From: a virus
Lineage: Duplodnaviria > Caudoviricetes
Length of the DNA stretch: 55,807 nucleotides
IMG/VR virus record: IMGVR_UViG_3300008012_000033
Location: 1 to 55,807 of that record
Reading direction: 5' to 3' (one strand)
The position numbers and the translations under genes were made by a program. Below are positions 1-25,167 of this stretch, in pieces. Below the pieces are notes generated by a model that was not told where the DNA came from, ran no database searches, and saw nothing but the letters and a program-made list of their open reading frames with translations. Position 1 is the stretch's first letter. Every line of letters begins with the position of its first letter.

Positions 1-123
1 CATCAGAGAGGTGGGCTCTACTGACCCAGATATCACTGAATACGGTAGGGTTGGTAGGGGCAATAGTGTTGAACTGACGTCAGAAAATGCTGGCTCTGTC
101 ATCGACAGAATCATCGCCTCAGG
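1..123. repeat. Terminal direct repeat, identical to 55685-55807 (circular-assembly overlap)
   Basis: catcagagag...cgcctcagg occurs identically at both ends, inside one continuous reading frame. Confidence 0.95.
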
Positions 124-3100
124 TAAAATTGTAACCACCCGCTTCTCAAATAGAGAGCAGATCATTCGTGGACTGCAAAACATCAAGAACATTATTGCTA
201 CAGTTACTGAAGCTGGGACAGGTGGCAAGGTGTTTCTGCACGGCACCACGAAAGCGTATGAAAAAGCTACAGGGGAGCGTTTTGCTAGAGGTGTGCATGT
301 GGTGTACAAGAGAAAGGACGACGGGACAGTGCAAAGCGCCGAGGTGCATTTGTTCTTGCCTGCACTAGAGGCCAACACGCCATACCACGAAGCGTTCCAC
401 CAGGCCACCTTGCAGAACGAAAATCAAGAGGATACCAAGGCAGGCACCAGACGTCTTGCTGCAACGCTGGCACGTCTGATTCCCAACATCGATGTGTTCT
501 CTAGATTCATTGCGGCATACCTGCCTGAAGAGCAACGATCAGTCCTTGCTTTGGCTGAGGCAGACCCTGCTATGCAGAGAAAGCTTCTGATGCAAATCGT
601 TGCGGAAAACGATACTGCGGCAGACGAGCTCTTGACAGAGATCAAGTCGTTGATTACATCGGGCACATTGAGTATTGATTTCAAGGCGGGCTTGATCTCA
701 GGGCTCAAGGAGTTTGTGTCTCGCACCTTTGGCACTTCTTTCAAAGACCCAAAGCTCAAGGCCGTTGTCGCAGCCATCGACGCCGCTACCCAAGCGATGG
801 CTAGGGGTGAGGCTGTAGCCGACACCGAAGCGATTATCGAAGCTGGTTTAAGATTGCAAGAGGGCCCAACAGCCATCGACGAAGAGGAGGGTGCGGTACT
901 TGAAGCTCAAGTAGATGAGGACGGCAACAGTGTGCAGCCAGGGTTGGACTCGCAAGAATCTGTCACTGAAGAGGGGCTTCCTGTTGATCCCGCCCAAGTC
1001 CAGGCCAAGAAGCAAGCCATCAATGTGGCAGGAACCTACATGGCCAACCAACCCACGGTAGACATTGCCAGTCTCTTGTCTGACTTCAAGGCTGAGAACA
1101 ATCGCAACCCTGTCGTATGGGTGTGGATGGCTGACCAGTTGAAGAGAGGCACGTACAGCAACCCTGATACGGGCGTTGAAGCACAGGTTTTGGGAGGCAT
1201 CGGATTTAGTACCGACCAGCAAAACCAAGACAACGATGTGGTGTGGGCATCAGGCTTGTCTCCCAAGACATTGAATGACAGGGTTGGTCGAGCTGACTAC
1301 ATCTTCCTGATGTCTGGCTCACCCAAGTCGGCACACAACTTCTCCAAGGGTACGTCCAAGGTGTTGATCCAGGAGATCGAAGCTGGGATGAAAAGAAATA
1401 TCGGCAAGACCTTTGGTGGCGTCGAGATTGTAGAGGGGTCGTTTGATGAGTTTGTGCAAATCACAAACTCTCTCCTGAAGACCAAGACAGAAACAAAGAA
1501 GTGGATGGGCGTGCTCAAGGCTTTGAACAGCCGAGGCAAAGACGTTGTCGATCACCCATCACGCAAAACATTTGTGCAGAACATGCTGCACCAAGGCATG
1601 GGCGTCAAGCCATCCCTTGAGTTTCATACGTTCTTGCACGACGAGCTTGGCGTGCCAAAGCAGGATGTCTTCAATCGACTGCTTAGAGACGAATACCTTG
1701 AAAAGATTGATGCCCAAACGGGTGACATCGTAGGCGTGTTGGAGCCTACGGGTATACAAGAGGACTCTGACGCTCACGACACCTATCAGCACTCTATCCT
1801 GGGCAAGTTTGTAGGTACACCTACCTCGCTGTTCAATGTCGTTGACATCGTGCCGACAGAAATCGTACAGCAACTGGCCAAGGCGGGCGCAGATATCGCA
1901 GCTCTGTCCAAGCCAGCCCTGATCAAAACGATTGCTGGCGACGTAGGGGGTGTGTTCTCTGAGAGCCAGATTGATTTGATCCGCAACAGCATCGAGTCTC
2001 TGTCCGATGCAGACACCACTGTTGAGTCTGTCACGAAACGTCAGGGCATCGTAAGCACTGTGGCGGATATCATGACTGAGCCAGGCTTTACACTCAAGCA
2101 GGTGGGTCGAGGCAAAAAGAAAAAGCTCGTTCTTGAAAAGACCGATCAGATACGACTGTTCAAGCCCAAGAAAGAAGAAGTCTTGAAGGTGCTAGAGGAT
2201 TCTGGCATGAGCAAAAAGGACGCTGAGGAAACATACAAGAAGGCAGTACAGTTTGCTCGGGGCCGAAGAGTCGGGCGCACGGAGCAAGGCAAGGTTGTCT
2301 CTAAGATTAGAAGAGAAAAGAACAAGCTATCTACCGAGGCAAAGAAACTGAGAGAGGAGCTGGACGCTTTGAAAAACAAAGTGTCTACGGTGCAGCAGTT
2401 TATCCGTGAGGCACGCAAGCTTATCAAAGATCGGATGGCCAAGGACAAAGGCGCATCCAAGGTGTTCACCGTAAAGCAACTGACAGAGTTTTTCAAGGTC
2501 ATGTCTCAGCTGTCTCGTTCGTCAGCTAAGAAGTTGAAGGGCAACGAGTTAGAGTACATCGATGCGCACCTGGATAAGTTGGCTGCCATCTTTGATGAGC
2601 AAGATGCCAGGGGTGCTATGGAGAGGCACCTCAAAAACTTGCAGACTATTCGTCAGTTCCAAAGCACGTTGAAGAGAAAGTCAAAGCAACGGGACTTCAC
2701 GACATACGCTGATCTTGCATTAGCCTTGTCCCGCATCAAGGCGTCCTTGATTCCTTTGGAGGAGCTTGAGGCGTTCATGAACTTGCTCAACACGGTCAAC
2801 AACAACATGCGCCGTGGACGGTTTGCCAAGGATGAGGAGGGCAACCTTGTGTTCGATGCCACTCAGTTGAATGAGGTCAAAGGATTGCAGGCGCAGCTCG
2901 ATGCATTCAAAGCAATCGAGCAAGCGCAGCAACAGGCGCAGCTACGGGCTAAGGCCGAGAGAGCCGTAGAGCGTAAGCTTTTGAAGGGCGAAGAGACCAC
3001 CTTTGAAGAGGAGTACGAAGCTATCTTAAAGAAGTTCTTCGAGAGCAGGCTTAGTGCCACGCAGAAGAGAGTCAACAAGATGGCGGAAAAGCTGGGTCTT

Positions 3101-6100
3101 GACCCACGTAATGTTGACGATCTCGAGACCATCTACTTGGAGTTGGCCAAAGAGGAGAAGGCACTGGTTGATCTAAAGAAATCTTTGATCATTGACGAAG
3201 GCATTATGCCTCTGATGCTTTTCAATGCTGAGGCTATCCTTGCCGACCCAGGGTTCCGCTTGATCATGGGCTTGCCTCAAAACGCCAACATTGAAGACGA
3301 CGAGGTCTTTAACAAAGTTCGTAAAAGATTAGACAAGCTTGAGAAGCACCACCTCTTGGCGATCGAGTACAAGCTCAATGACTACCTCGTCAATGGCAGA
3401 ACTTTTGGACTCGGATACTTGGCTGCACTCACCAAGGGGCGCATCAATTACGCCGATAAGATCACGAAACTGACAGAAAGAGGTATTTCGTCAAAGCGAA
3501 CAGCCGTTCTTGGTGTGTTGGATAACTTGTCTAGTCTGCTTAGGAATCTTTTCCGTGTGAGCAACAGAGACATTGCTCGAATCAAGGTGGCGATCGGATT
3601 GCAAGACGTGATCATGGCTATCAATGCTTTTGAACAAAGGCACTTGGAAACTGCCAACGCACTGCAAGAGAAGATTGACGAGATCAACAAGAAGTTTTCT
3701 CTCAAGGGCAAAACAGACATTACGTCGAAGCTAAGTCAAGCACTGTCGCAGATATACAGCATGTCTCGTCAGATGCCAAAAGAGTTTGTTGAAGAGGCTC
3801 GTGCTGCCTCTAGGACGCAAGAGGATTTTGAGCAGCGTCTTGCAGAAAAGCAAGCGGCATGGTATAAAGCCTTGCGTGATTCTATGCAAGCTACAATCGA
3901 GGACATAGAGCAAAATGAAAGTGCTGTTCAAGAAACGATCGACCAGTTCAAAGAAGCTTTTGACTTCTTGTTTACAGGAGAAGCAACGCTAGAGGCGTTG
4001 CAAAACCGTGTGCAGACAGGGCGCCCTGAGGTTGTAGAGATGGTGGACTTTATGGTCGATCTGCACGAACGAGCTAGGCCCGACTTGGAAATCTTTGCAG
4101 AAAGATTTCTTGGGAAAGAGCTTGGCGTCCTCGACAACTACACGCCATTCCAGGTTAGAAAAACTTCAAAAGATGAGGATGTAGAATCTGTCATGGCCTT
4201 GCGCAATGCATTGGTTAGCAGGATGCAAGCCTCATCAAAAGGTGGGGTACAGAAAACTCCTGGTGCAACTTTCGAGAGAGAGCAAAGGGCTGTGGGTGGT
4301 GAAGCAATCTTGGGATTGAATTTCATCGACATCAACCACAACACCCTGAGGGAGAATGCGTTGATTACTACAGCTTTGGGGGACATCCTTGCGATGGAGT
4401 ATGCGTTTGGAACGGAAGCGTTTGGCAACTTGGTAAAAGACGAAGCTGGTGGTCAGCTCAAGCAATACGTCAGGGATTTCTTGCAGGTTGAAACACAAAG
4501 CGAACCGTTTATCTTCCGCAGTCGTGTTCGTGTTGGCGGTAAGGCATTGTTGAACCCCATCGAATCCTTGCGTGCTGCGGCGGTTGTTGGTGCATTCGGA
4601 TCGATTTTTGTTCAGGTTGTCAAACAGGGCACCGTCGGCTTGGCGACATTCATGAATATGCGGAGCATCAGCTCCATGATGTATTTCATGCAAGAGTCCG
4701 CAAGCATCCTTGCATTGACATTTGTCGGGACAGATATTGAGGGCAAGCGTAAGGTCTTGAGCGATCCTACTGTTAAGCTTCCTGGAGACAAGTTCGAGTT
4801 GCTCAAAAGAAGTGCAGCATTTTTGAGAGACTACCGTGCAGGAAACATCGACCCGTTCCAAGGCAACACAAACTTTGACAGGTCTAGAATGCGACGGTTG
4901 AGAGACACGTTCACAAACAAGTCTTTGTGGGCTTTGACTACAACGGATAAGGCGGTTGCTGTTGCTTCTTTCTTTGCTTACTACGCTGACTTCTTAATTG
5001 AACAGGGTGTTGTGACGAGCGCATCTGATATTGATTGGACGAACGAAGCAGCCAATCCCAATGCAGAAGCCTTGGCGTATGCCGACAACATGCTTGAAAA
5101 AGATCAGAACACTTCAAGTGCTCGAATGGCAGCAGCCATTTACAAAAGAGATGGTGGTGCTGGTCGAAGCTTGATGCAAGCGTTCTTCCCGTATCAAAGT
5201 TTTGCGATCAACACAAAGAGGTCGTTGACATCGGATGTGGGAAGACTTCTTATGGGTGTAGATGCACAAGCAAGAAAGGATGGACTCAGAGGTTTTGCTG
5301 CAACCATGTCGTCCTTGTTTGCCTTCCACATCGCATCTAAAATGACGATGGCACTCTTCAACGAGATTGTCAAACAAGCGATGGGTGATGATGATGACGA
5401 AGAGAAGGAGTTTGATGCAGTTCAAATGTTGAAAGAGTCTGGTGTGAGTGCTGCGGTTGATGCTCTTCCCGTTCCATCTATAGGTATGGTTGACGACAAT
5501 GTTCGAGATGCCTTTAACTACCACTTGTTCTTCAACGAAGCGGACTACGACATCCCTGGACTCGAAAAAGAAGACAAGTTTGCCTTGTTCAAAAAGTATG
5601 GTGGTGCTGTCCCAACTTATGGAGACAGCTATGCGGACATGGCAAAGAATGAAAAAGAGCCAGGGGCTAGAGCTTTGTACACTTTGCTTGGGTTGACAGG
5701 GCCAGCGGGACAAAAGTTCAGAGACATCACGACATCAATTGATCGACTGAAGAGAGATGGTAAGTCGTATACGACCAACTCAGGAAGCGAAAGGTTTGTG
5801 AGACCTGAAGATCAAGAGCACATGCAGATCAGCACGGTCTTGAGGGCAACACTACACGGAGCTAACCTTGTGGGCTTGGGTGTCAAAGAGTTGGACTACT
5901 TTGCCAAGGCTATGGACGACATGCCTATGAATAGATCGCTGACCAGTGAGGAAGAGGCTGCGGCATACGAGTTTGTGACACAAGCTTTCAGTGACGACCC
6001 AGAGCTTCAAGCTTACCTTGAAGCTGGCGAAGACATAGGTGTTGACAAGCTCATGCGTATCTTGAAGATGCAAGCAGAAAGCGACTTGACAACGCTAGAC

Positions 6101-6385
6101 AAAAACATCAGCGTCTCAAAGTTCAAGTCTGCTTTGAAGCCCGCTGTAGCTGAGAAGCTGTTGCAAAACATCATGCCTGAACAATACAGTCAGCATGCGA
6201 ACGAGATGCGTAGATTGTCCAAAGAAAGCTCTAAGAAAATCGCCTCTGTTCTCAAGGCCAAAGAGAGGGAGATGACCGAGGAAGAGTACAACGCATACTT
6301 TAATTTTGCTTTCTTTTACTTAGGCATTAAATCTGAGGCAGGTCTCGAATCTATTCTAACAGAAAAAGCATTTGCTACACCATGA
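2..6385 (+). CDS. C-terminal two-thirds of a giant (~3057 aa) internal virion/ejected protein; continues from 52896 across the join
   Basis: Same frame as the ORF starting at 52896 once ends are joined; HExxH motif (YHEAFH, ~386-400), long coiled-coil stretches; last gene of the tail/ejection block. Confidence 0.8.
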   Translation: MREVGSTDPDITEYGRVGRGNSVELTSENAGSVIDRIIASGKIVTTRFSNREQIIRGLQNIKNIIATVTEAGTGGKVFLHGTTKAYEKATGERFARGVHVVYKRKDDGTVQSAEVHLFLPALEANTPYHEAFHQATLQNENQEDTKAGTRRLAATLARLIPNIDVFSRFIAAYLPEEQRSVLALAEADPAMQRKLLMQIVAENDTAADELLTEIKSLITSGTLSIDFKAGLISGLKEFVSRTFGTSFKDPKLKAVVAAIDAATQAMARGEAVADTEAIIEAGLRLQEGPTAIDEEEGAVLEAQVDEDGNSVQPGLDSQESVTEEGLPVDPAQVQAKKQAINVAGTYMANQPTVDIASLLSDFKAENNRNPVVWVWMADQLKRGTYSNPDTGVEAQVLGGIGFSTDQQNQDNDVVWASGLSPKTLNDRVGRADYIFLMSGSPKSAHNFSKGTSKVLIQEIEAGMKRNIGKTFGGVEIVEGSFDEFVQITNSLLKTKTETKKWMGVLKALNSRGKDVVDHPSRKTFVQNMLHQGMGVKPSLEFHTFLHDELGVPKQDVFNRLLRDEYLEKIDAQTGDIVGVLEPTGIQEDSDAHDTYQHSILGKFVGTPTSLFNVVDIVPTEIVQQLAKAGADIAALSKPALIKTIAGDVGGVFSESQIDLIRNSIESLSDADTTVESVTKRQGIVSTVADIMTEPGFTLKQVGRGKKKKLVLEKTDQIRLFKPKKEEVLKVLEDSGMSKKDAEETYKKAVQFARGRRVGRTEQGKVVSKIRREKNKLSTEAKKLREELDALKNKVSTVQQFIREARKLIKDRMAKDKGASKVFTVKQLTEFFKVMSQLSRSSAKKLKGNELEYIDAHLDKLAAIFDEQDARGAMERHLKNLQTIRQFQSTLKRKSKQRDFTTYADLALALSRIKASLIPLEELEAFMNLLNTVNNNMRRGRFAKDEEGNLVFDATQLNEVKGLQAQLDAFKAIEQAQQQAQLRAKAERAVERKLLKGEETTFEEEYEAILKKFFESRLSATQKRVNKMAEKLGLDPRNVDDLETIYLELAKEEKALVDLKKSLIIDEGIMPLMLFNAEAILADPGFRLIMGLPQNANIEDDEVFNKVRKRLDKLEKHHLLAIEYKLNDYLVNGRTFGLGYLAALTKGRINYADKITKLTERGISSKRTAVLGVLDNLSSLLRNLFRVSNRDIARIKVAIGLQDVIMAINAFEQRHLETANALQEKIDEINKKFSLKGKTDITSKLSQALSQIYSMSRQMPKEFVEEARAASRTQEDFEQRLAEKQAAWYKALRDSMQATIEDIEQNESAVQETIDQFKEAFDFLFTGEATLEALQNRVQTGRPEVVEMVDFMVDLHERARPDLEIFAERFLGKELGVLDNYTPFQVRKTSKDEDVESVMALRNALVSRMQASSKGGVQKTPGATFEREQRAVGGEAILGLNFIDINHNTLRENALITTALGDILAMEYAFGTEAFGNLVKDEAGGQLKQYVRDFLQVETQSEPFIFRSRVRVGGKALLNPIESLRAAAVVGAFGSIFVQVVKQGTVGLATFMNMRSISSMMYFMQESASILALTFVGTDIEGKRKVLSDPTVKLPGDKFELLKRSAAFLRDYRAGNIDPFQGNTNFDRSRMRRLRDTFTNKSLWALTTTDKAVAVASFFAYYADFLIEQGVVTSASDIDWTNEAANPNAEALAYADNMLEKDQNTSSARMAAAIYKRDGGAGRSLMQAFFPYQSFAINTKRSLTSDVGRLLMGVDAQARKDGLRGFAATMSSLFAFHIASKMTMALFNEIVKQAMGDDDDEEKEFDAVQMLKESGVSAAVDALPVPSIGMVDDNVRDAFNYHLFFNEADYDIPGLEKEDKFALFKKYGGAVPTYGDSYADMAKNEKEPGARALYTLLGLTGPAGQKFRDITTSIDRLKRDGKSYTTNSGSERFVRPEDQEHMQISTVLRATLHGANLVGLGVKELDYFAKAMDDMPMNRSLTSEEEAAAYEFVTQAFSDDPELQAYLEAGEDIGVDKLMRILKMQAESDLTTLDKNISVSKFKSALKPAVAEKLLQNIMPEQYSQHANEMRRLSKESSKKIASVLKAKEREMTEEEYNAYFNFAFFYLGIKSEAGLESILTEKAFATP

Positions 6386-6801
6386 GAAACATTGACAGAA
6401 TTGTATTGCACTGCTCGGCTACACCCGAGGGCAAAGACTACAGCGTAGAAACGATCCGTGATTGGCACGTCAACGGAAACGGTTGGGCTGACATTGGATA
6501 CCACTACGTCATCAGACTTGATGGCAGTGTGGAGTTGGGCCGACCTATCGACAAGGCGGGTGCTCACGTCAAAGGCCACAACAAAACAACAGTGGGCGTA
6601 TGCTACATCGGAGGATGCGATGAGGGTATGCTTCCCAAAGACACGATGTCGGAGGATCAGGCTTGCGCCTTTGAAGAAATCGTAAACGGTGTGAGATGTC
6701 TTTTTGGGAAAGACATCTCCATCCACGGACACAATGAATACTCGAACAAGGCTTGTCCAAGCTTCGTCGTTCAAGAGAAGTTTTCACACCTCGACTCATG
6801 A
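6382..6801 (+). CDS. Endolysin, N-acetylmuramoyl-L-alanine amidase (Amidase_2, T7 lysozyme-like)
   Basis: Motifs IVLHCSAT, GWADIGYHYVI, GAHVKGHN, HGHNE, KACPSF. Confidence 0.93.
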   Translation: MRNIDRIVLHCSATPEGKDYSVETIRDWHVNGNGWADIGYHYVIRLDGSVELGRPIDKAGAHVKGHNKTTVGVCYIGGCDEGMLPKDTMSEDQACAFEEIVNGVRCLFGKDISIHGHNEYSNKACPSFVVQEKFSHLDS

Positions 6802-8930
6802 GATTCCTACCTCTTCTTTTACTCCCTCTGTTTGCAACAGCACAGGAGGGCTGGGTGTCCATCTCCATCCAAGGGGACGCATACGGGGAAGAAACGACGT
6901 GGCTTATTAGAGACTCAAGCGACGCCATCGTTGCAGGTTCAGCGCCTTTGCAGGGAGAGTATCCGTATGTCGAGGCGTTCCTTCCACTGCCTCTTGGTGA
7001 GTACACCTTTACCATCTACGATTCTTTTGGCGATGGCATCTGCTGTGGCTTCGGGGAGGGCTGGTTTTCGATCAACACCTGTGAGTTAGACACCACGGTG
7101 TATGACTTCAGTGCGTCAGAGATGACCGTCCCCTTCGAGGTTCTTGCCTGTCCACCACCCATCTTTGGATGTATGCAAGCGGGTGCTATCAACTATCACC
7201 CCTGGGCCAACGCTCCTGCACCTTGCGACTTCCCTCCCGTACAATGCGAAGAAGGATACAACAACATCCTTGTAACAGTTACGCCTGACACTTATGCAGC
7301 TGAGATCAGCTGGGATCTAGTCACAGTCCCAGACGGTGAAGTGGTTGCTGAGGGGTCAGGCTATTCTATTGTAGGCGCTCCCGTTGTAGAGGCTGTGTGC
7401 CTACCTGTTGGTTCGGAGTTCAGGGTGGACGTGTACGACAGCTTCGGAGATGGTATGTGCGGCAGCTGCTATGGAGGAGTAGATGGGAACCTGCTTGTTT
7501 CCAACCTGTGTGGAGAGACGCTGTACTACGTGGGTGATACTACGCAGTACGAAGTAGCATCAAGTGATACTATCGTGATCGACCCATGCTTCCCGCCCAT
7601 CCCTCAGGGATGCACCGACTCGTGGTTTACAGAGTACGATCCCAGTGCCGTGATCGATGACGGCAGCTGTCAGACAGAGGTGATACTGGGATGCACTGAT
7701 CCTCAAGCAATTAACTTCAATGAGGATGCCAATACACTGGAGACAGAAGACAACTGTGACTTTACTCTGACACTTACGGACGGAGCAGGAGATGGTTGGT
7801 TCGGTAGCTGGGTTGGAGTGCAGCAGGGCGACGAGATCTGGGGTCCGTTTACCATGTACCCTAGCGACGAGTTTGAGAAAGAGATTCAGATCCCTCTGTA
7901 CTCTGGAGAAGCAGTCAGGGTCATGTTCTTTACGCAGGGTAACGCAGAGACAACCGCATCCCAATGCGGGTTCTACTTCGACGGGCCAAGCGGTGTGTTC
8001 ATGGAGGGCGGGACCAACCCGTGGTCCGATGCCATCAAGAAGTTCCCATTTAAGTACGACGGCGTGCCTGTATGCGGAGACTTCTGCGAGGCTGGTATCG
8101 AGGGCTGCACGCTTAGCTTCGCCTGCAACTACGACCCCGAGGCAAACGTAGACGGTGACTGCACCTTCCCGATCGAGCACTACGGATGCGACAACGAGTG
8201 TATCAACGACGCCGATGGCGACGGGGTGTGTGACGAGCTTGAGGTGGTGGGTTGTCAAGACCCAACAGCATACAACTACAACGAGTCGGCCACAGATCCA
8301 GCAGAGTGCGAGGAAGTTGTGTTTGGGTGTACTGACCCCACCATGTTCAACTACAACGAGCTGGCCAACACAGAGAACAACAGTTGCGTTGAGTTCATCT
8401 ACGGATGCACCATTCCCGAGGCGATCAACTACGACCCGATGGCCAACACCAACAATGGAAGCTGTGAGTTGCCTATGCCTGGGTGTATGGACCCTGACGC
8501 TGCCAACTACAACGTGTACGCTAACGTACCCAACAACGAAGAGTGTCTGTACGACGCTGGATGCATCACTGGTCCAGGTGAGCCATACTGGGCCAACGAC
8601 TACTGCTACTCGTGGGTGATTGAGGTTGACCCCTACTGCTGCGAGGTGGGATGGGATGCGGTGTGCATCAGTCAGTACGAATACTGTGCAGGTCAGGTGT
8701 CTTCCATCACCTCGGATGTAAGGGAGATGACTTACTTCTTCCCAAACCCTACTGAAAACATCATCAACGTAGAGGCACCCACAGGCACAGTGATTACCAT
8801 CTACGATGCATCAGGCAAGAAGGTGGTGGAGACACAGGACACTCGAATCGATCTCCCATCTCCAGGGGTCTATGTCATCATGGCTAGCTATCAAGGTAGG
8901 ATTACAAAAGAAAGAATCGTAAGACAATGA
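6798..8930 (+). CDS. Secreted Cys/Asp-rich repeat protein with T9SS type A C-terminal sorting domain (710 aa from ATG 6798)
   Basis: Signal peptide MRFLPLLLLPLFATA|Q; repeated YDSFGDG-type domains; GCxDPxAxNY repeats; C-terminal FPNP..TIYDASGKKV..IDL..GVY..K.IVRQ. Confidence 0.85.
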   Translation: MRFLPLLLLPLFATAQEGWVSISIQGDAYGEETTWLIRDSSDAIVAGSAPLQGEYPYVEAFLPLPLGEYTFTIYDSFGDGICCGFGEGWFSINTCELDTTVYDFSASEMTVPFEVLACPPPIFGCMQAGAINYHPWANAPAPCDFPPVQCEEGYNNILVTVTPDTYAAEISWDLVTVPDGEVVAEGSGYSIVGAPVVEAVCLPVGSEFRVDVYDSFGDGMCGSCYGGVDGNLLVSNLCGETLYYVGDTTQYEVASSDTIVIDPCFPPIPQGCTDSWFTEYDPSAVIDDGSCQTEVILGCTDPQAINFNEDANTLETEDNCDFTLTLTDGAGDGWFGSWVGVQQGDEIWGPFTMYPSDEFEKEIQIPLYSGEAVRVMFFTQGNAETTASQCGFYFDGPSGVFMEGGTNPWSDAIKKFPFKYDGVPVCGDFCEAGIEGCTLSFACNYDPEANVDGDCTFPIEHYGCDNECINDADGDGVCDELEVVGCQDPTAYNYNESATDPAECEEVVFGCTDPTMFNYNELANTENNSCVEFIYGCTIPEAINYDPMANTNNGSCELPMPGCMDPDAANYNVYANVPNNEECLYDAGCITGPGEPYWANDYCYSWVIEVDPYCCEVGWDAVCISQYEYCAGQVSSITSDVREMTYFFPNPTENIINVEAPTGTVITIYDASGKKVVETQDTRIDLPSPGVYVIMASYQGRITKERIVRQ

Positions 8931-9961
8931 AGTACATCACCACCATCTTGTTAATTTGTTTTTCGATCACTGCATCGGGACAGTCGATCAAGAAGGCTTT
9001 GAAGTTCGCCACGTTCTACACAGCTTTCAGCGGAGGTAACTCACTGTCTGACGCAGAGGTTTTTTCTGTAGGCAATGGCTTGCAAACTGACATAGTAGAG
9101 ACGCCTTTCGATTACTCTTTGACAGCGGGCATCAGAAAGATTGCCCGCTTTGGATACGAGAACAGGGCCAACACATTCTACAATGGGACAGAGAAATCCT
9201 ACGGTGATGCTGCTACCATTGGTAAGGTTAGTGGCTTTGAGTTTCTGTTTGAAGGTGACTACAGAAGACAGCAGGGCATCAACTATCTCGATCAAGACCA
9301 TTTCCTCAGGTATGTAGCCGATCAATGGATTGCCAAGGTAGAGTTCTTGCAGGATGGTTTTGCTGATGTCCGATACTTCGAAGCCTCCGAAAGATTTCGG
9401 GCGAAGGTTGGTAAGCTTTCACTCAACGCAGGCATCATGCAGAGATTGTCTGAGCCCTACGGATACGACCCACTTAATGAGTGGGTCTTGGACAACAATC
9501 AGTTGCACTTCACCTCACTCGCTATACAAGAAGGGTATAATATAGATGTCAACACTGGACAGTTCTTCAATCCAGATGGGGAAGTCGTCGCAAACAGCTA
9601 CGACGTTTGGGAGGAGGTTGTCATCCCCGAGGTCTTGAAGGACTACGTAGATAAAAAGAGGGGCGATCTGAGGAACCAGTGGGTTCATTCAATTGTGTTG
9701 GGTTTCGATTACTATCACTTCACAAAGGACTTCTGGGTACACACTTGGGGCAACTTGATTCCATATCATCTTGACACCGATGGTGAATACTCTTACCATC
9801 GGTTTGTAAACAGTGGTCAATGGGTCGATTACTCTGGGGGCCTTATATTTGGTAAAAGATTCAACAAAAGTTTTGGTGTCTTTGCAGAAGGTAAATATCA
9901 CAAGTATTGGGATAGGTCATGGCATGACTTCTCTGTCGGCATCAACTATGTAATTATTTGA
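8927..9961 (+). CDS. Exported protein, predicted outer-membrane beta-barrel
   Basis: Signal peptide ...TASG|Q; aromatic-rich amphipathic strands; C-terminus FGVFAEGKY...DFSVGINYVII. Confidence 0.65.
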   Translation: MKYITTILLICFSITASGQSIKKALKFATFYTAFSGGNSLSDAEVFSVGNGLQTDIVETPFDYSLTAGIRKIARFGYENRANTFYNGTEKSYGDAATIGKVSGFEFLFEGDYRRQQGINYLDQDHFLRYVADQWIAKVEFLQDGFADVRYFEASERFRAKVGKLSLNAGIMQRLSEPYGYDPLNEWVLDNNQLHFTSLAIQEGYNIDVNTGQFFNPDGEVVANSYDVWEEVVIPEVLKDYVDKKRGDLRNQWVHSIVLGFDYYHFTKDFWVHTWGNLIPYHLDTDGEYSYHRFVNSGQWVDYSGGLIFGKRFNKSFGVFAEGKYHKYWDRSWHDFSVGINYVII

Positions 9962-9962
9962 T

Positions 9963-10247
9963 ATGGCTCAACAGATTGGGGAGGACACTAAGATTACGCT
10001 AGACCTAAAGACCATAGGCATGGCGGCAGCAGGGGTTGGTACAATCGTGGCCATGTGGTTTGCCCTGCAAGCAGACATCGCAGAAGCCAAGGAACTGCCA
10101 GCTCCATTAGCACCAGAGATCACACGCATGGAGTTCGACATGAAGGATCAGCTTGTCCGTCAAACAATCATGACTACGCAGGAGGATGTCACGGAAATCA
10201 AAGAAGACATCAAGCGTATTGAAGAAAAGATAGATCAATTAAAATGA
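9963..10247 (+). CDS. Small membrane-anchored coiled-coil protein
   Basis: One hydrophobic segment (IGMAAAGVGTIVAMWFAL), Pro linker, then heptad repeat VTEIKEDIKRIEEKIDQLK. Confidence 0.7.
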   Translation: MAQQIGEDTKITLDLKTIGMAAAGVGTIVAMWFALQADIAEAKELPAPLAPEITRMEFDMKDQLVRQTIMTTQEDVTEIKEDIKRIEEKIDQLK

Positions 10248-10250
10248 TAA

Positions 10251-10616
10251 ATGAAAATCTTACCAATCCTGTTTGCATCATCTGCGCTATTCTTAGCGGC
10301 CACCTCTGTGGCAGATGTAGCGGATGATAAAATATGTGACAGCGGCATCTGCGTAGTAGAGTTCAACGCATCTTTCAATTCCCAAAACAAAGTGGAATGG
10401 ATAGAGAACCTGAACGATTGCGAAACAAGCCGTGTGGACATTGCAACTGCTCCTGCCCTTCAGCAGGAGCACAAGATTGTTGTGGTGCCAACCATTGTTG
10501 TGTTCAACGAAGGCGAAGAGGTCAAACGATTTCAAGCCAACATCATGATGACGATGGAAGCAAGCATGGATGACGTGCAAGAAGCCATCGACGAAATACT
10601 GATGAGTGATTTTTAA
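10251..10616 (+). CDS. Exported thioredoxin-fold protein lacking CxxC
   Basis: Signal peptide; VVEFNASFN in place of VVDFxAxWC; RVDI...LQQEHKIVVVPTIVVFNEGEEVKRF matches the thioredoxin cis-Pro region. Confidence 0.78.
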   Translation: MKILPILFASSALFLAATSVADVADDKICDSGICVVEFNASFNSQNKVEWIENLNDCETSRVDIATAPALQQEHKIVVVPTIVVFNEGEEVKRFQANIMMTMEASMDDVQEAIDEILMSDF

Positions 10617-10625
10617 TACAGAACC

Positions 10626-11060
10626 ATGAGTGAAAAGAAAATCAAAGACACCAAGCTAGGATCTTGGTTGAAGGACAAGGCACCCAATGTCTTGTCCGTG
10701 GTAGGTAACCTGCTCCCCGACAGCGGCGGACTGGGTGTCGTCAAGAACCTGATTGCAAAAGACCCTGACGTCGATACCAATGAGGGGACGGCAGCGGTAG
10801 ATGCTGAGATTGCATTCCAAGCCAATGTTACAGAGCGATGGAAGGCTGATATGGGAAGCGATGTAAAGCTGGCCAAGCTCATCCGACCCGTCACCTTGAT
10901 CGCTTTGATGAGCATGTTCATGGTCACCATGATGATTGACAGCATGGACAACGTGGCCTTCACTGTGAAAGACTCTTACGTCGATCTCCTTCAGGTCTTG
11001 ATGCTCACAGCCTTCGGTGCGTACTTCGCAGGACGTACCATCGAAAAGGCCAAGAAGTAA
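10626..11060 (+). CDS. Holin (GTA 3TM-holin-like)
   Basis: ERWKADMGSD..LAKLIRP followed by two hydrophobic helices and AYFAGRTIEK basic tail; end of lysis operon. Confidence 0.75.
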   Translation: MSEKKIKDTKLGSWLKDKAPNVLSVVGNLLPDSGGLGVVKNLIAKDPDVDTNEGTAAVDAEIAFQANVTERWKADMGSDVKLAKLIRPVTLIALMSMFMVTMMIDSMDNVAFTVKDSYVDLLQVLMLTAFGAYFAGRTIEKAKK

Positions 11061-11150
11061 TCAGAGGATTGCAATCATGTAGCCCTTGTGGCAAGGCACG
11101 ATCATGCACTCTCCATCTATAACGGTGGTGTGGGTTGTCCAATAGTTCAT
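11061..11150 (-). CDS. Possible 29-aa micro-ORF (MNYWTTHTTVIDGECMIVPCHKGYMIAIL)
   Basis: ATGA overlap with the upstream stop; exactly fills the gap to the holin stop. Confidence 0.35.
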   Translation of the reverse strand: MNYWTTHTTVIDGECMIVPCHKGYMIAIL

Positions 11151-11584
11151 GCTGAGACAAACTTAACGTAGGACAGAGGTATCTGAAAGAACCTCTCTCC
11201 TTTTGCCATCATTTTGTTTGACACCTCGTGCGTGTCCAGGTGTTTGATGTCTTCGCTCCAAAAGCATGCGGCTCTTGAGAGGTCGTTGCTCCAGATAAAA
11301 AACAAGGTGCGCTCGTCAAAGAACTTTTGTTTGCGGGCGGGCAACTGCACATTGGCGTAGGGAAACTTCCCTGTCTCCCAAACAGCCTTGACTTCACACT
11401 CGACTAAAAAACGACAGTCTAACTTCGAGATGAAGCTGGGCTCAGCAATAAGATCCTGTGCGTATTGATCGGGATTCTCTGTCACGATGTAGCCCTGTTT
11501 CTCCATGCATGCAATCGTAGCCCCTCGTGCTTTGTTGTCGTATTCATGATGAAGAAGTCTATCGAAGGGCTTGTTTGGGGCCAT
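11147..11584 (-). CDS. Putative PD-(D/E)xK-fold nuclease
   Basis: QDLIA...LVECEVK motif; replication module context. Confidence 0.55.
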   Translation of the reverse strand: MAPNKPFDRLLHHEYDNKARGATIACMEKQGYIVTENPDQYAQDLIAEPSFISKLDCRFLVECEVKAVWETGKFPYANVQLPARKQKFFDERTLFFIWSNDLSRAACFWSEDIKHLDTHEVSNKMMAKGERFFQIPLSYVKFVSA

Positions 11585-12032
11585 TGTGCAGGTGTTTTTT
11601 GATGATCTCTATGGTGGCGTCTACCTGCTTTCTGTTCTTAGGGATGAACAGCATGTAGTCCTCCATATTGTTTTCAATCAGGTATTTCAGAAACAACTTC
11701 CATCGCAACGGAAAGGTGTGTTGGCCGTGGACGTAGCCCTTGGTTTCTATGATGAACTTGTGTTTGTGAGAGACAAAGTCTGGCGTGTACTTGATGCCCA
11801 TCACAGCCTTGTTTGAATTGTCACGCATCACGTCCCTTCCCTTGGTCATCTTGTGATATACTCCAGGGTATCGAAAGCCATCGACCAGATAGAAGACCTC
11901 CTCCTCGTATGCAAAGTCCCACCCCGTGTCCTTGAGCCTGTCAAAGCAGTATGCTTCAAGTGCGCTCTTCAGAGACTTACCTGCCCTCCTGTGTCCTTTT
12001 GCTTTAGGTCTTTTGCGTGGCTTCCGTTTCAT
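11559..12032 (-). CDS. Endonuclease I-like / Holliday junction resolvase (PD-(D/E)xK)
   Basis: KSALE, FAYE, KYTPDF, IIETKG motifs. Confidence 0.78.
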   Translation of the reverse strand: MKRKPRKRPKAKGHRRAGKSLKSALEAYCFDRLKDTGWDFAYEEEVFYLVDGFRYPGVYHKMTKGRDVMRDNSNKAVMGIKYTPDFVSHKHKFIIETKGYVHGQHTFPLRWKLFLKYLIENNMEDYMLFIPKNRKQVDATIEIIKKHLHNGPKQALR

Positions 12033-12036
12033 GCTG

Positions 12037-13806
12037 TCAGATCATTTTCATTTGTTTGTCTACATCTGTCGCTTGTATGTGAGTGAAGAGTCTACCAAAC
12101 GGCCCAACCATCTCAAAGCATGTGCCGTCCATAGACATCTTGAAGATGAAGGGTGTATCAAATGGCGTGGGTTCTCCGCCTGTCTCTTGGTTGCGAACCT
12201 TACGCACATGAAACTCAATCTCTCTTCGCTTGTCGATGCTCGGGTGGTGTATCTTCCTATGCAAAGTAAGGAAGCAATCGGAACGGTTGACCCACTTGCC
12301 ACCATGTTCTGTGTCCTCGGCTCCTGGAGCCACGGGAAGTCCATCGTTGCCCTTGGCCCTGATAGCTGAGGTAACAGAGTGGGCGTTGACCCATACAGCT
12401 ATGTTCATGCGATTGCTGAACGTTAAGAACTCACTTGCCGCTTCATAGTGATACTCATGGACACCACCCATTGAAAGGGTGGTGATCTTCAGGGAGTTGT
12501 ACGGGTCGATCAGCAAGCCGTCAATCGGGTGCTTGCGTGACACCTTCTCGCAATACAACAAGACCTCTTCGTAGCTCAGCACCTTGCTGTTGTCGATGAG
12601 AACGAAGTGCCTCTTCACCCACTTCATCATGGTGGATATCTCATTCTTGCTCAAGTCCTGAATGGTCTTGCCTGTTGCAAACTGTATCAAGCGCATCTTG
12701 ATAAGCGCCGTGTTGTTCTCGCTGCTGTATATCACCCATCTCCAATCGTGGTTGATGGCTGATGATACTATCATGTACAGCATGAAGGTGGTCTTACCTA
12801 TGCTGCTGTGTCCCGAGATCATGGTGAACTCTTTCTTGAACCTGTAGTTCCTGTCCAAGATGGTGTTGCCTGTCGATAGCCCTGTCTCAAAGTCGCCAGA
12901 CCTGAACTTGATGATCCAATCGAAGTCCTCGGTGTCGTCACTCATGAACGACAAGTCTCCATCGGTGAGCATCATCTCACGCCGCATAGCTTGCTCGGCC
13001 TCTATGGTCTCGGCCAGAGGTGACAGCTTACCCTGTCGTATGCCATCAGCTATGGTGTTGCGTGCCGTCTCCATGCTGTCCACATTCCGCTTCGCTATCT
13101 CTTTCTCCAAGACACGCACAGCTTCCGACTCCTCAACACGTCGTGCCGCTATGAAGCCACCCAACAAGATGCTTGCCTTGAGCAAGGCTTCGTGCTTTCC
13201 GCCATCGGGTGCCTTGCGTATAATGCAAGCGGCCAAATAGAGCTTGCTGTAGTCCGTGTCGTCAGAGGTAGGTACGTCGGGCGTAACAGCATTTTCTATG
13301 GTCTTGGAAAAGACCTTGCCCTCTGGTTTGATATGGATGTCGGGGTCGTAGCTTTCGTAACAACCCCGTGACTCGTTGATGCCACTTTGATCCACCAACA
13401 AGCCGTGTGTCTCGGAGAAGTGGTTGCACATAGCCCTGAAGTGTGACCTGTGCTTGGTCGGATCATCTATCTTGACGAGGGCCTTGAGACCATCACCCGA
13501 TGGGCTCACCCAGCATGCCTTGACGTATTCGTCATCGCTTAAAGACTGCTTGGCCACAGGCACGTCGATGTGATCGAAGTCCAGGACTATGTATCCGCTG
13601 TGTTTGCGTAGGCTGTCATCCTTACGGCTGTCGAAGATGCCACTGAACAGGATGAGGGGCAGGTCTTTCTTCTTTTTCTTGTCGCCCTCTCGTATGGCCT
13701 GTATGGTCTCTGATTGCTTGCCTGTCTTGATGCGCTGAAAGGCGAGGTCGAGATCGATGTGACGTGGGTTGTCTGTCTCGTAGTGGTTTGGGTATATGGT
13801 GATCAT
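12037..13806 (-). CDS. Primase (BT4734/VirE-N-like) fused to DnaB-like helicase
   Basis: N-terminal KKDLP, SGYIVLDFDH, SPSGDGLK; C-terminal Walker A GHSSIGKT, LLIDPYN, VNAH, KVRNQETGG. Confidence 0.85.
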   Translation of the reverse strand: MITIYPNHYETDNPRHIDLDLAFQRIKTGKQSETIQAIREGDKKKKKDLPLILFSGIFDSRKDDSLRKHSGYIVLDFDHIDVPVAKQSLSDDEYVKACWVSPSGDGLKALVKIDDPTKHRSHFRAMCNHFSETHGLLVDQSGINESRGCYESYDPDIHIKPEGKVFSKTIENAVTPDVPTSDDTDYSKLYLAACIIRKAPDGGKHEALLKASILLGGFIAARRVEESEAVRVLEKEIAKRNVDSMETARNTIADGIRQGKLSPLAETIEAEQAMRREMMLTDGDLSFMSDDTEDFDWIIKFRSGDFETGLSTGNTILDRNYRFKKEFTMISGHSSIGKTTFMLYMIVSSAINHDWRWVIYSSENNTALIKMRLIQFATGKTIQDLSKNEISTMMKWVKRHFVLIDNSKVLSYEEVLLYCEKVSRKHPIDGLLIDPYNSLKITTLSMGGVHEYHYEAASEFLTFSNRMNIAVWVNAHSVTSAIRAKGNDGLPVAPGAEDTEHGGKWVNRSDCFLTLHRKIHHPSIDKRREIEFHVRKVRNQETGGEPTPFDTPFIFKMSMDGTCFEMVGPFGRLFTHIQATDVDKQMKMI

Positions 13807-24561: not shown

Positions 24562-25167
24562 ATGAAAGCCTTACATCACTTCATCGTAAGAGTACCTAAA
24601 ACATTTGAAGACACCATCGATGTCGGTGGCAAGGAGTTGTACTTAGACTCCAAGTGGAACGAGTTTGAAAACAGGATTGCTTACGGAGAGATCGTCTCTG
24701 TGCCTTTGAGGTACGACGGCGATGCCAAGAAGGGAGACACTTTGATCTTCCATCATCACGTCACAACAAACAGCGCCCTTAAAATCTCAGACGACCTGGG
24801 AGACAATTTGTACATGTGTATGTACAATGCAGAGCACGGTCAGCTCAGTCAAGCCATTGCGTATCGAAGCAAGGAGACAGAGGATCTGCACATGCTTGCG
24901 GACTGGCTGTTTGTTTTGCCTGTAGATCAGAAAAAAGAGGAGGAAAAGACTGAGGGAGGGATCATCATTCCCGACCTCAACCCTGAGGTCAGAGACATCG
25001 CCGAGGTATACACCCCACACCCAGAACTTGAGGAGCAAGATGTAAATCCTGGTGACATAGTAGGATTTGAGAAGAGTGCTGACTACAAGATTAAGTTAGA
25101 CAATGACGACATTGTCTATCGTATGCGTGTACAAGACATCAGCTATGTCGAAGTTCACAACGATTGA
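24562..25167 (+). CDS. GroES-like co-chaperonin with tandem domains
   Basis: DWLFVLPV..EEKTEGGIIIPD mobile-loop motif, VNPGDIVGF; N-terminal half has a similar GEIVSVP..KKGDTLIF pattern. Confidence 0.72.
   Translation: MKALHHFIVRVPKTFEDTIDVGGKELYLDSKWNEFENRIAYGEIVSVPLRYDGDAKKGDTLIFHHHVTTNSALKISDDLGDNLYMCMYNAEHGQLSQAIAYRSKETEDLHMLADWLFVLPVDQKKEEEKTEGGIIIPDLNPEVRDIAEVYTPHPELEEQDVNPGDIVGFEKSADYKIKLDNDDIVYRMRVQDISYVEVHND

Follow-up and report, generated by a model that had tools for sequence, protein, structure and literature searches.

The subject of this report is a module of four envelope genes in a virus record of the Caudoviricetes (Duplodnaviria), IMG/VR record IMGVR_UViG_3300008012_000033, of which the whole stretch of 55,807 bp was analyzed and is referred to below as the window. 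Between an endolysin gene and a holin gene, the window encodes a cysteine-rich exported protein tagged for a secretion system of type IX (T9SS) (the cargo), a predicted outer-membrane beta-barrel (the barrel), a small membrane-anchored coiled coil (TMcc) and a predicted exported thioredoxin fold without the CxxC active site (Trx). The results showed that this gene set is real, is widespread in ocean phages and matches no described system. What is new is that an exported fourth protein accompanies the trio of barrel, TMcc and Trx in all three barrel clades, that TMcc, with or without Trx, also occurs beside endolysin or holin genes without the barrel, that the cargo gene is a hot spot of strain variation, and that the barrel falls outside the PorP/SprF family. 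In terms of function, a possible action of the module in the outer-membrane step of lysis is the reading we tentatively favor, because TMcc, Trx and barrel are persistently linked to endolysin and holin genes.

Gene layout and co-occurrence in viral contigs

Six plus-strand genes at 6382-11060 make up the gene block:

6382-6801, plus strand: endolysin, N-acetylmuramoyl-L-alanine amidase, 139 amino acids (aa); phrog_822, E 1.8e-50; PF01510, 43.2 bits (cut-off 26)
6798-8930, plus strand: cargo, Cys-rich T9SS type A protein, 710 aa, 39 Cys; TIGR04183, 31.7 bits (cut-off 23)
8927-9961, plus strand: predicted outer-membrane beta-barrel, 344 aa; AlphaFold2 (AF2) model and Foldseek, no family match
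9963-10247, plus strand: TMcc, membrane-anchored coiled coil, 94 aa; one N-terminal hydrophobic segment
10251-10616, plus strand: Trx, predicted exported thioredoxin fold without CxxC, 121 aa; PF00085 in the family, AF2 model
10626-11060, plus strand: holin, 144 aa; phrog_3427, E 3.7e-21

A first-pass annotation, made from the letters of this DNA, had described four envelope genes tightly coupled between amidase and holin, and the layout bears this out: 4-nucleotide (nt) ATGA overlaps join amidase to cargo (at 6798) and cargo to barrel (at 8927), while the gaps are 1 nt between barrel and TMcc, 3 nt between TMcc and Trx, and 9 nt between Trx and holin. No promoter or terminator signals beyond chance were found inside the gene block, with 3 promoter-like sites in comparison to a chance mean of 6.5, and 8 terminator-like sites in comparison to a mean of 4.7 (standard deviation 2.1), by a consensus that is not that of Bacteroidota. 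Both the close spacing and the lack of internal signals above chance speak for a role in lysis, and the six genes may form one extended lysis cassette, in which the four envelope proteins would be made together with endolysin and holin. In most relatives the place of the amidase is taken by a peptidase M15 endolysin, located elsewhere in the gene order. The holin has one scored hydrophobic stretch (residues 82-107) and a second near 118-136 that was read from the sequence, and its homologues were found in 11 phage records, 9 of which are Vibrio phages.

The possibility that the contig is chimeric with host DNA in this region had been raised along with the module itself, and was evaluated using sequencing runs. 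The stretch was present in 20 DNA runs from 15 studies. Three independent runs (X2, X3 and X5) had contigs in 30/30 bins of 5000-12500 at even depth, and a further run (X9) in 26/30 of these bins; contigs of X2 and X3 bridged 5000-7778, 8492-10151 and 9975-12500, and the GC content was flat over the region. The window is thus not chimeric, because it is a complete record with direct terminal repeats and its junctions are bridged in independent runs.

To describe the gene neighborhood, barrel stretches (188, 96 and 31 for clades 1, 2 and 3) and 587 holin stretches were collected from IMG/VR scans and confirmed by tblastn. Clade 1 was queried with the window's barrel (identity at least 61%; 188 loci found, 80 kept), clade 2 with P0136, which is 32% identical to the window's barrel (96 loci found, 80 kept), and clade 3 with P0141, which is 35% identical (31 loci). 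Open reading frames (ORFs) of at least 50 aa were labelled with custom hidden Markov models (HMMs), and loci were taken as evaluable when no less than 3.5 kb lay between the barrel and either locus end, a rule by which 27, 26 and 16 loci of clades 1, 2 and 3 were dropped. The counts and the typical gene orders were as follows:

Clade 1: 53 evaluable loci; barrel, TMcc and Trx in 53; lysis gene within 4.5 kb in 42; order cargo, barrel, TMcc, Trx, M15 endolysin, holin
Clade 2: 54 evaluable loci; barrel, TMcc and Trx in 49; lysis gene within 4.5 kb in 23; order barrel, Cys-rich protein, TMcc, Trx, M15, holin
Clade 3: 15 evaluable loci; barrel, TMcc and Trx in 15; lysis gene within 4.5 kb in 14; order barrel, TMcc, Trx, D3 (a clade-3 exported protein, see below), M15, holin

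The lysis-gene counts are lower bounds because only the holin, M15 and amidase families were counted. The wide co-occurrence of the four genes in viral contigs, which had been put forward as the first thing to check, is supported, with the trio present in all three clades. Three evaluable loci came from metagenome-assembled genomes (MAGs), with the trio in 3/3 and a lysis gene nearby in 1/3. The linkage to lysis genes is kept although the type of endolysin and the position of the holin vary between loci, and it spans three clades at 32-35% barrel identity, which argues for the lysis role. An alternative is that there is no joint function, the genes being accessory ones gathered at the permissive end of a late operon; the order TMcc-x-x-Trx-cargo-barrel in L035, L036, L038 and L086, the position of the cargo after Trx in L031 and L082, and the small genes inserted between members at some loci are consistent with it. 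This explanation is rendered very improbable by the presence of the trio in 120 of 125 evaluable loci overall (MAG loci included) across such divergent barrels, by the members usually overlapping or abutting each other across loci, and by the finding of none of them in cultured phages.

In clades 1, 2 and 3 the trio was joined by an exported fourth protein in 53/53, 54/54 and 13/15 evaluable loci, respectively. The T9SS C-terminal sorting domain (CTD), as scored by a custom HMM, was present in 53/53 loci of clade 1 in comparison to 0/54 of clade 2 and 0/15 of clade 3. The use of the host T9SS, which was central to the first-pass annotation, thus holds for clade 1 and fails as a shared feature, and since the CTD occurs only in clade 1, the T9SS cannot be the core of the mechanism. 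The Pfam CTD model matched 0/6 clade-2 and 0/9 clade-3 fourth proteins, and hhalign of the clade-2 and clade-3 tails with the CTD gave 3% and 19-24%, always on the YxxxG motif and not significant. An HMM (D3) was built from 19 clade-3 exported proteins of 169-202 aa; it matched the window's cargo (whole-protein E 1.4e-10, residues 11-81 and 155-223) and the C-terminal tails of clade-2 Cys-rich proteins (E 3e-4 to 8e-3), where the E-values refer to only a few thousand proteins. The fourth proteins of the three clades therefore appear to be linked by common domains. When clade-1 proteins were searched with an HMM for the clade-2 Cys-rich proteins' N-terminal domain, only signal peptides matched.

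The constant presence of a fourth protein, and the domains shared between its forms, are what would be expected of an alternative function in surface display or exclusion. The cargo would then be the payload, the barrel its anchor or port, Trx a redox-dead chaperone and TMcc a tether; the payload, made late, would mask the receptor, block superinfection or keep progeny off debris, and the position by the lysis genes would merely reflect late expression. We consider this explanation only slightly less likely than the lysis role; the points against it are given below with the barrel, the lifestyle of the phage and the holin loci.

Several loci were also compared with the window by eye. L199 and L201-L204 have a window-like backbone in which a giant ORF is followed by holin and barrel, and in L199, L200 and L202-L204 these genes are followed by TMcc, Trx, a small exported protein and window-like minus-strand genes; L199-L204 carry no T9SS protein. 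In the window the giant ORF (11-6385, 2124 aa) lies directly upstream of the amidase with a 4-nt overlap, begins 10 nt into the record and has no PHROG match at 1e-5. Its homologue was found among the 80 clade-1 loci only in L002. In L199 and L201-L204 the equivalent place, ahead of the holin, is occupied by ORFs of 1748-1812 aa, and in L200, where there is no holin match, by one of 1555 aa. Other recurrent neighbors include a conserved protein (about 60 aa, starting with MINWINSW...) that has a CPC...C pattern and was found beside barrel or holin in several clades (L035:7116-7298, L016:5771-5959, L131:8572-8757, L092:3580-3759 and L116:10197-10379). Proteins of low complexity with many Met, Gly and Lys residues (MPGGGMM... 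repeats) also lie within the module or next to it at several loci (L016:7035-7550, L202:8198-8701 and L035:8839-9135). In L186, L188 and L197, proteins of 1634-1678 aa with 87-106 cysteines and no match to the CTD HMM are encoded four genes upstream of the clade-3 barrel.

Host and the four envelope proteins

The other genes of the window recognized with PHROGs include large terminase, portal and virion proteins, and further primase/helicase, exonuclease, an Erf-like annealing protein and a GroES-like protein. The latter co-chaperonin gene lies at 24562-25167 (phrog_13932, E 9.8e-35), and most clade-1 loci have a homologue of it, placed a few genes downstream of their holin. No integrase was found among 20 further window proteins, a subset of its genes, that were scanned against PHROGs, and the phage appears lytic, which weighs against the display or exclusion explanation.

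The terminase matched 91 phage records, all at less than 60% identity (best 46.4%), of which 68 are by name Flavobacterium phages, 15 Cellulophaga, 2 Tenacibaculum and 1 Maribacter, with 5 uncultured or unnamed; all matched records that name a host are phages of Flavobacteriia. According to the available part of PMC10367356, signal peptidase I cleavage in Bacteroidetes exposes an N-terminal Gln (the Q-rule). A regular-expression heuristic (hydrophobic N-terminus, then small-x-small-Q), which is not SignalP, gave such a signal in 70/70 clade-1 and 74/76 clade-2 barrels, 59/69 clade-1 cargo proteins, 61/61 clade-2 Cys-rich proteins, and 51/66 clade-1 and 62/62 clade-2 Trx proteins, in comparison to 13/700 and 21/937 of the remaining predicted proteins of the same clade-1 and clade-2 loci. 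For TMcc the counts were 0/57 in clade 1 and 10/56 in clade 2. Because Flavobacteriia phages match the terminase and the exported proteins fit the Q-rule, the host is very probably a member of Bacteroidota, in agreement with the first-pass annotation.

For the barrel, no family was found in Pfam, PHROGs or NCBIfam with the window copy and 23 family members, and a profile search against PDB sequences gave nothing below E 0.27. The AF2 model, which is of moderate confidence (pLDDT 64.9, pTM 0.62), has 12 strands and a helical insert at 176-250, and its Foldseek matches in PDB were all outer-membrane barrels, among them NanC, NalP, EspP, FapF and Tsx; the E-values were 1e-6 to 1e-4 and the TM scores only 0.3-0.4. 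The barrel fold suggested earlier was thus indeed predicted. In BFVD, Foldseek returned one unnamed viral barrel relative (E 1.8e-20), the rest being phage-encoded porin-like barrels; outer-membrane barrels are common among predicted viral structures, a point in favor of display. With a cleavable signal peptide and a predicted closed beta-barrel, in a model of moderate confidence, the protein resembles a substrate of the beta-barrel assembly machinery (BAM). A C-terminal F or Y was seen in 9/23 aligned members, and the window copy ends in NYVII.

By sequence comparison, the barrel is not a PorP/SprF protein: 0/23 family members matched TIGR03519 at E <= 0.1, while the same model gave 11 above-cut-off matches in two Bacteroidota MAGs, and hhalign against six bona fide PorP/SprF proteins gave a probability of 3%. 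This lack of relationship to the barrels that anchor T9SS cargo weighs against a display platform, as do the strong conservation of the barrel (64%) and the shortness of most of its outward loops as predicted in the model. Public protein data contain 3414 homologues of the barrel, with 311 representatives after clustering at 50%, and the family has been seen only in viral contigs and in unnamed or doubtfully binned metagenome records. Look-ups in a protein atlas gave only viral clusters, at lead-level scores, and context scans with the distant representatives P0125 and P0184 found no viral contig. In a genome scan, with patterns from close barrel relatives only, six MAG contigs were found, labelled as five unrelated lineages and one 'uncultured bacterium', which are most simply explained as binned phage DNA.

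The cargo carries the following features:

6828-7040, plus strand: first GDG-type domain, residues 11-81; clade-3 D3 HMM, domain i-E 0.051
7260-7466, plus strand: second GDG-type domain, residues 155-223; clade-3 D3 HMM, domain i-E 1.8e-5
7167-8546, plus strand: Cys-repeat span, at least 8 short Cys-bounded repeats (GC-x-D-P-x-A-x-N-Y...C) and one DxDxDGxxDxxE; regular expression on the translation (7 matches, one running into an eighth repeat)
8739-8927, plus strand: T9SS type A sorting domain, residues 648-710; TIGR04183, 31.7 bits (cut-off 23); PF18962, 25.6 bits (cut-off 27)

The TIGR04183 match that had been anticipated is thus above its cut-off. The PF18962 score of the window copy lies just below the cut-off, and the 3/3 cargo homologues that were tested pass it (50, 47.9 and 38.9 bits). 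Beyond the sorting domain no Pfam family was found in the cargo, and the type B sorting-domain model of NCBIfam had no match. Its signal peptide ends in ATA followed by QEG, which fits the Q-rule by the heuristic above, and we infer that the cargo reaches the surface via the host T9SS.

The cargo gene is a hot spot of strain variation. Over the 80 clade-1 loci the median identity to the window was 33.5% for the cargo in comparison to 64% for the barrel, 62% for TMcc, 63% for Trx and 46% for the holin. Within populations, contigs of X3 and X5 break at about 7010-7030, with further breaks near 7406 and 7778, and substitutions are dense in X2 and X3 at 7111-7241, within the first domains of the cargo. 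In the stretch 7010-7406, independent runs have contigs ending in alternative sequences, and at least 20 substitutions within 130 nt are common to two runs; a second substitution cluster was observed in X3 at 9971-10112, at the 5' end of TMcc. Both the divergence of the cargo between loci and its variation within populations favor display, and variable phage T9SS cargo genes have been interpreted in the same way in the available part of Bellas et al. 2020 (PMC7468147).

TMcc has a hydrophobic segment at about residues 17-36, followed by about 57 residues with a heptad-like C-terminus (heptads read from the sequence). Its invariant residues are E7 and K16 before the membrane segment and E57, K61 and R66 after it. 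The absence of a cleavage motif in all 57 clade-1 proteins (0/57) fits an uncleaved anchor. With a type II anchor, a coiled coil and a position in the lysis cassette, TMcc conforms to the description of an inner-membrane spanin (i-spanin), the topology being a prediction. A second TMcc paralogue of 108-114 aa was seen beside the first or near the holin (L179:7838-8164, L218:2981-3307 and L220:544-888). In a cultured Vibrio N4-like phage, a 113-aa protein of the TMcc architecture follows the homologous holin (L168:3412-3753) and contains no embedded lipobox ORF; comparison of TMcc with this transmembrane-plus-coiled-coil protein gave an hhalign probability of 12%, on the membrane segment only, and no homology was detected.

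For Trx, the window copy scored below the Pfam cut-off (20.4 in comparison to 23.5), while 23/26 family members matched PF00085 at E <= 0.01 (best 1.2e-9), and the AF2 model (pLDDT 85) had classical thioredoxins as its best PDB neighbors (E 1.6e-6). The E. coli thioredoxin motif is WCGPC. At the CxxC positions the family has Asn43, which is invariant, and Asn46, which is nearly so, and the clade-2 proteins read EFWAEWNKAN at the active-site position; no variation was seen in the cis-Pro motif VPT or in a C-terminal Phe. A lipobox-like Cys in the signal peptide was found in 11/157 Trx relatives, the window copy not among them, so that some of these may be lipid-anchored. In many clade-1 and clade-3 loci an optional small membrane or exported gene of 100 or 120 aa lies between TMcc and Trx (L021:7325-7627), with matches to DUF2279 (32.4 bits, above cut-off), more weakly to VanZ, and to phrog_26616 'lipoprotein'.

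Spanins, holin loci and the possible role in lysis

As stated in the first-pass annotation, no candidate for an outer-membrane or unimolecular spanin (o- or u-spanin) was found in the window: a heuristic lipobox scan gave 5 ORFs, all of them antisense inside large genes and none with the C-terminal membrane segment typical of u-spanins. That a complete genome has no such lipobox candidate supports the lysis role. Around TMcc, no lipoprotein ORF was embedded in any of the 178 TMcc genes scanned (0/178), and of the 18 lipobox hits nearby, 17 fell on the start of a downstream Trx and one on a short ORF located after TMcc. According to PMC12596118, unimolecular spanins are the only type used by Bacteroidetes phages. 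In one branch of clade 2, a Pro-rich protein of 61-64 aa with a lipoprotein-type signal, o-spanin-like in size and composition, directly follows the barrel (L094:6778-6963, also L103, L104, L109 and L110, and weakly L097); by tblastn it was present in 6 of about 270 loci.

We also looked at loci centered on the holin rather than the barrel, using 80 loci of at least 587, of which 78 had a plus-strand holin match and 29 were evaluable. The content within 4.5 kb of the holin was as follows:

Full trio: 14 loci
TMcc and Trx: 2 loci
Trx only: 1 locus
None: 12 loci

In L219 the order is TMcc-Trx-M15-holin, and the flanks (about 6 kb upstream and 7 kb downstream) contain no barrel; L221, a locus of only 2.7 kb, shows TMcc-M15-holin, and L286 shows TMcc-holin. 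TMcc is thus the member nearest the lysis genes and is present there without the barrel, which favors the lysis role, and these loci, being without barrel and without fourth protein, are hard to reconcile with a role of TMcc and Trx that only serves a displayed payload.

Under the lysis role, TMcc would be anchored in the inner membrane with its short coiled-coil arm in the periplasm, Trx would be periplasmic, the barrel would be put into the outer membrane by the host BAM, and the cargo would travel to the cell surface via the host T9SS. Jointly these proteins would connect both membranes, and the module would perform or trigger the final step, in which the outer membrane is opened after holin and endolysin have acted. 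TMcc may serve as the i-spanin, with Trx and barrel replacing the absent o-spanin lipoprotein, and the variable exported protein may be the strain-specific surface part. The i-spanin-like architecture of TMcc, followed by the gene of an exported partner as in separated spanin pairs, supports this scheme by analogy.

Several observations weigh against the scheme. The holin-locus sample showed no complementary distribution of module and recognizable spanins, because module-less holin loci show no obvious adjacent spanin either: a lipobox gene within four genes of the holin was found in 0/10 of the module-less loci read (of 12), among which a transmembrane-plus-coiled-coil gene was seen in L230 only, and other small membrane-segment genes in L231 and L271. 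The nearest cultured phages by terminase are without barrel and TMcc. A hypervariable Cys-rich partner of 700-1100 aa was found in 120/122 evaluable viral-contig loci (123/125 with MAG loci), which is not what an outer-membrane disruptor needs, and the periplasmic part of TMcc, with about 57 residues, is short for spanning the periplasm. The barrel is conserved above the holin (64% in comparison to 46%), which suggests more than an anchoring role. Binding among the parts of the module is a proposal; a complex prediction with barrel 19-344, Trx 22-121 and TMcc 38-94 scored 0.01 in comparison to a mark of 0.32, an uncontrolled result that gives no evidence either way.

The position of TMcc also suggests a third explanation, namely control of lysis timing in analogy to T4 lysis inhibition, in which TMcc would be a holin partner or antiholin whose arm senses a signal (e.g., secondary adsorption) via barrel, Trx and, where present, the surface protein, with the effect of delaying or triggering holin firing. 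Of the members, TMcc lies closest to the holin and in L286 is found beside it on its own; its residues are conserved on either side of the membrane, which suggests contacts on both sides, and a second paralogue is present in L179 and L218. We hold this explanation to be improbable, in that the predicted periplasmic loop of the holin is short by our reading of its sequence and offers no obvious docking domain, PHROGs gave no sign of similarity to known antiholins, and the case for it is one of architecture.

Returning to the outer-membrane step of lysis, the fuller proposal would be that many ocean Bacteroidota phages breach the outer membrane with a self-built non-spanin device made of barrel, dead thioredoxin and short coiled coil, which a hypervariable surface protein rich in Ca-binding motifs, T9SS-delivered in clade 1, would fit to the host strain. 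In this complete form we regard it as unlikely, and more so than a lysis role as such.

Comparison with known systems

No description of the module was found in literature searches aimed at it, which left supplements and subscription journals uncovered, and none of 50,697 phage records of cultured phages has the region, the barrel or TMcc. Two-component spanins are known as Rz/Rz1 of lambda and, in the separated-gene type, as PseT.3/PseT.2 of T4. The module resembles them in that a small type II inner-membrane coiled coil in the lysis cassette is followed by the gene of an exported partner, so that on paper the envelope is spanned. It differs from them in having no lipoprotein o-spanin, the partner having a thioredoxin fold and a site for signal peptidase I, in the additional presence of a barrel (344 aa) and of a large exported protein that varies, in the shortness of TMcc, and in having only weak matches to PHROG lysis families.

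Redox-inactive thioredoxin folds are known from TraF of the F plasmid and from the b' domain of PDI. Similar to these, Trx has lost its CxxC, is placed in an exported compartment and presumably binds a partner, whereas its matches to TrbC_Ftype are sub-threshold (E 0.046 and 0.062) and its nearest structures are cytoplasmic thioredoxins. Phage envelope proteins that act in exclusion, receptor blocking or lysis timing include Bor and Lom of lambda, Llp of T5, Imm and Sp of T4, and the RI antiholin. As with lambda bor, the envelope genes of the module adjoin lysis genes; unlike Bor, Lom, Llp, Imm/Sp and RI, which are single small non-homologous proteins, the module is a conserved set with one predicted member per envelope layer.

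SprB/SprF and other type B CTD pairs consist of a T9SS cargo with its cognate PorP/SprF-type barrel. The module is alike in that a large T9SS-tagged protein is followed, with overlapping genes, by an outer-membrane barrel of about 340 aa, and differs in that its sorting domain is of type A and its barrel lies outside TIGR03519. Phage genes for T9SS type A cargo are described as variable genes of 'Cryophage' in the accessible text of Bellas et al. 2020 (PMC7468147), and ORFs with T9SS sorting domains in crAss-like gut phages in that of de Jonge et al. 2019 (PMC6949934). Similar to the cargo, these are phage genes with a Bacteroidota T9SS domain that vary between close variants; in the same portions of the two reports they are placed in variable islands or near head genes, and no linked barrel, coiled coil, thioredoxin or lysis-cassette position is mentioned.

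If the lysis role is true, the module would be a third way to open the Gram-negative outer membrane, besides spanins and disruptin-type peptides, and would explain how abundant marine flavobacterial phages complete lysis in seawater rich in Mg and Ca. If display is true, these phages would build their own outer-membrane platform and borrow the T9SS to re-dress the infected cell. By either reading, four protein families without annotation gain a context through the module.

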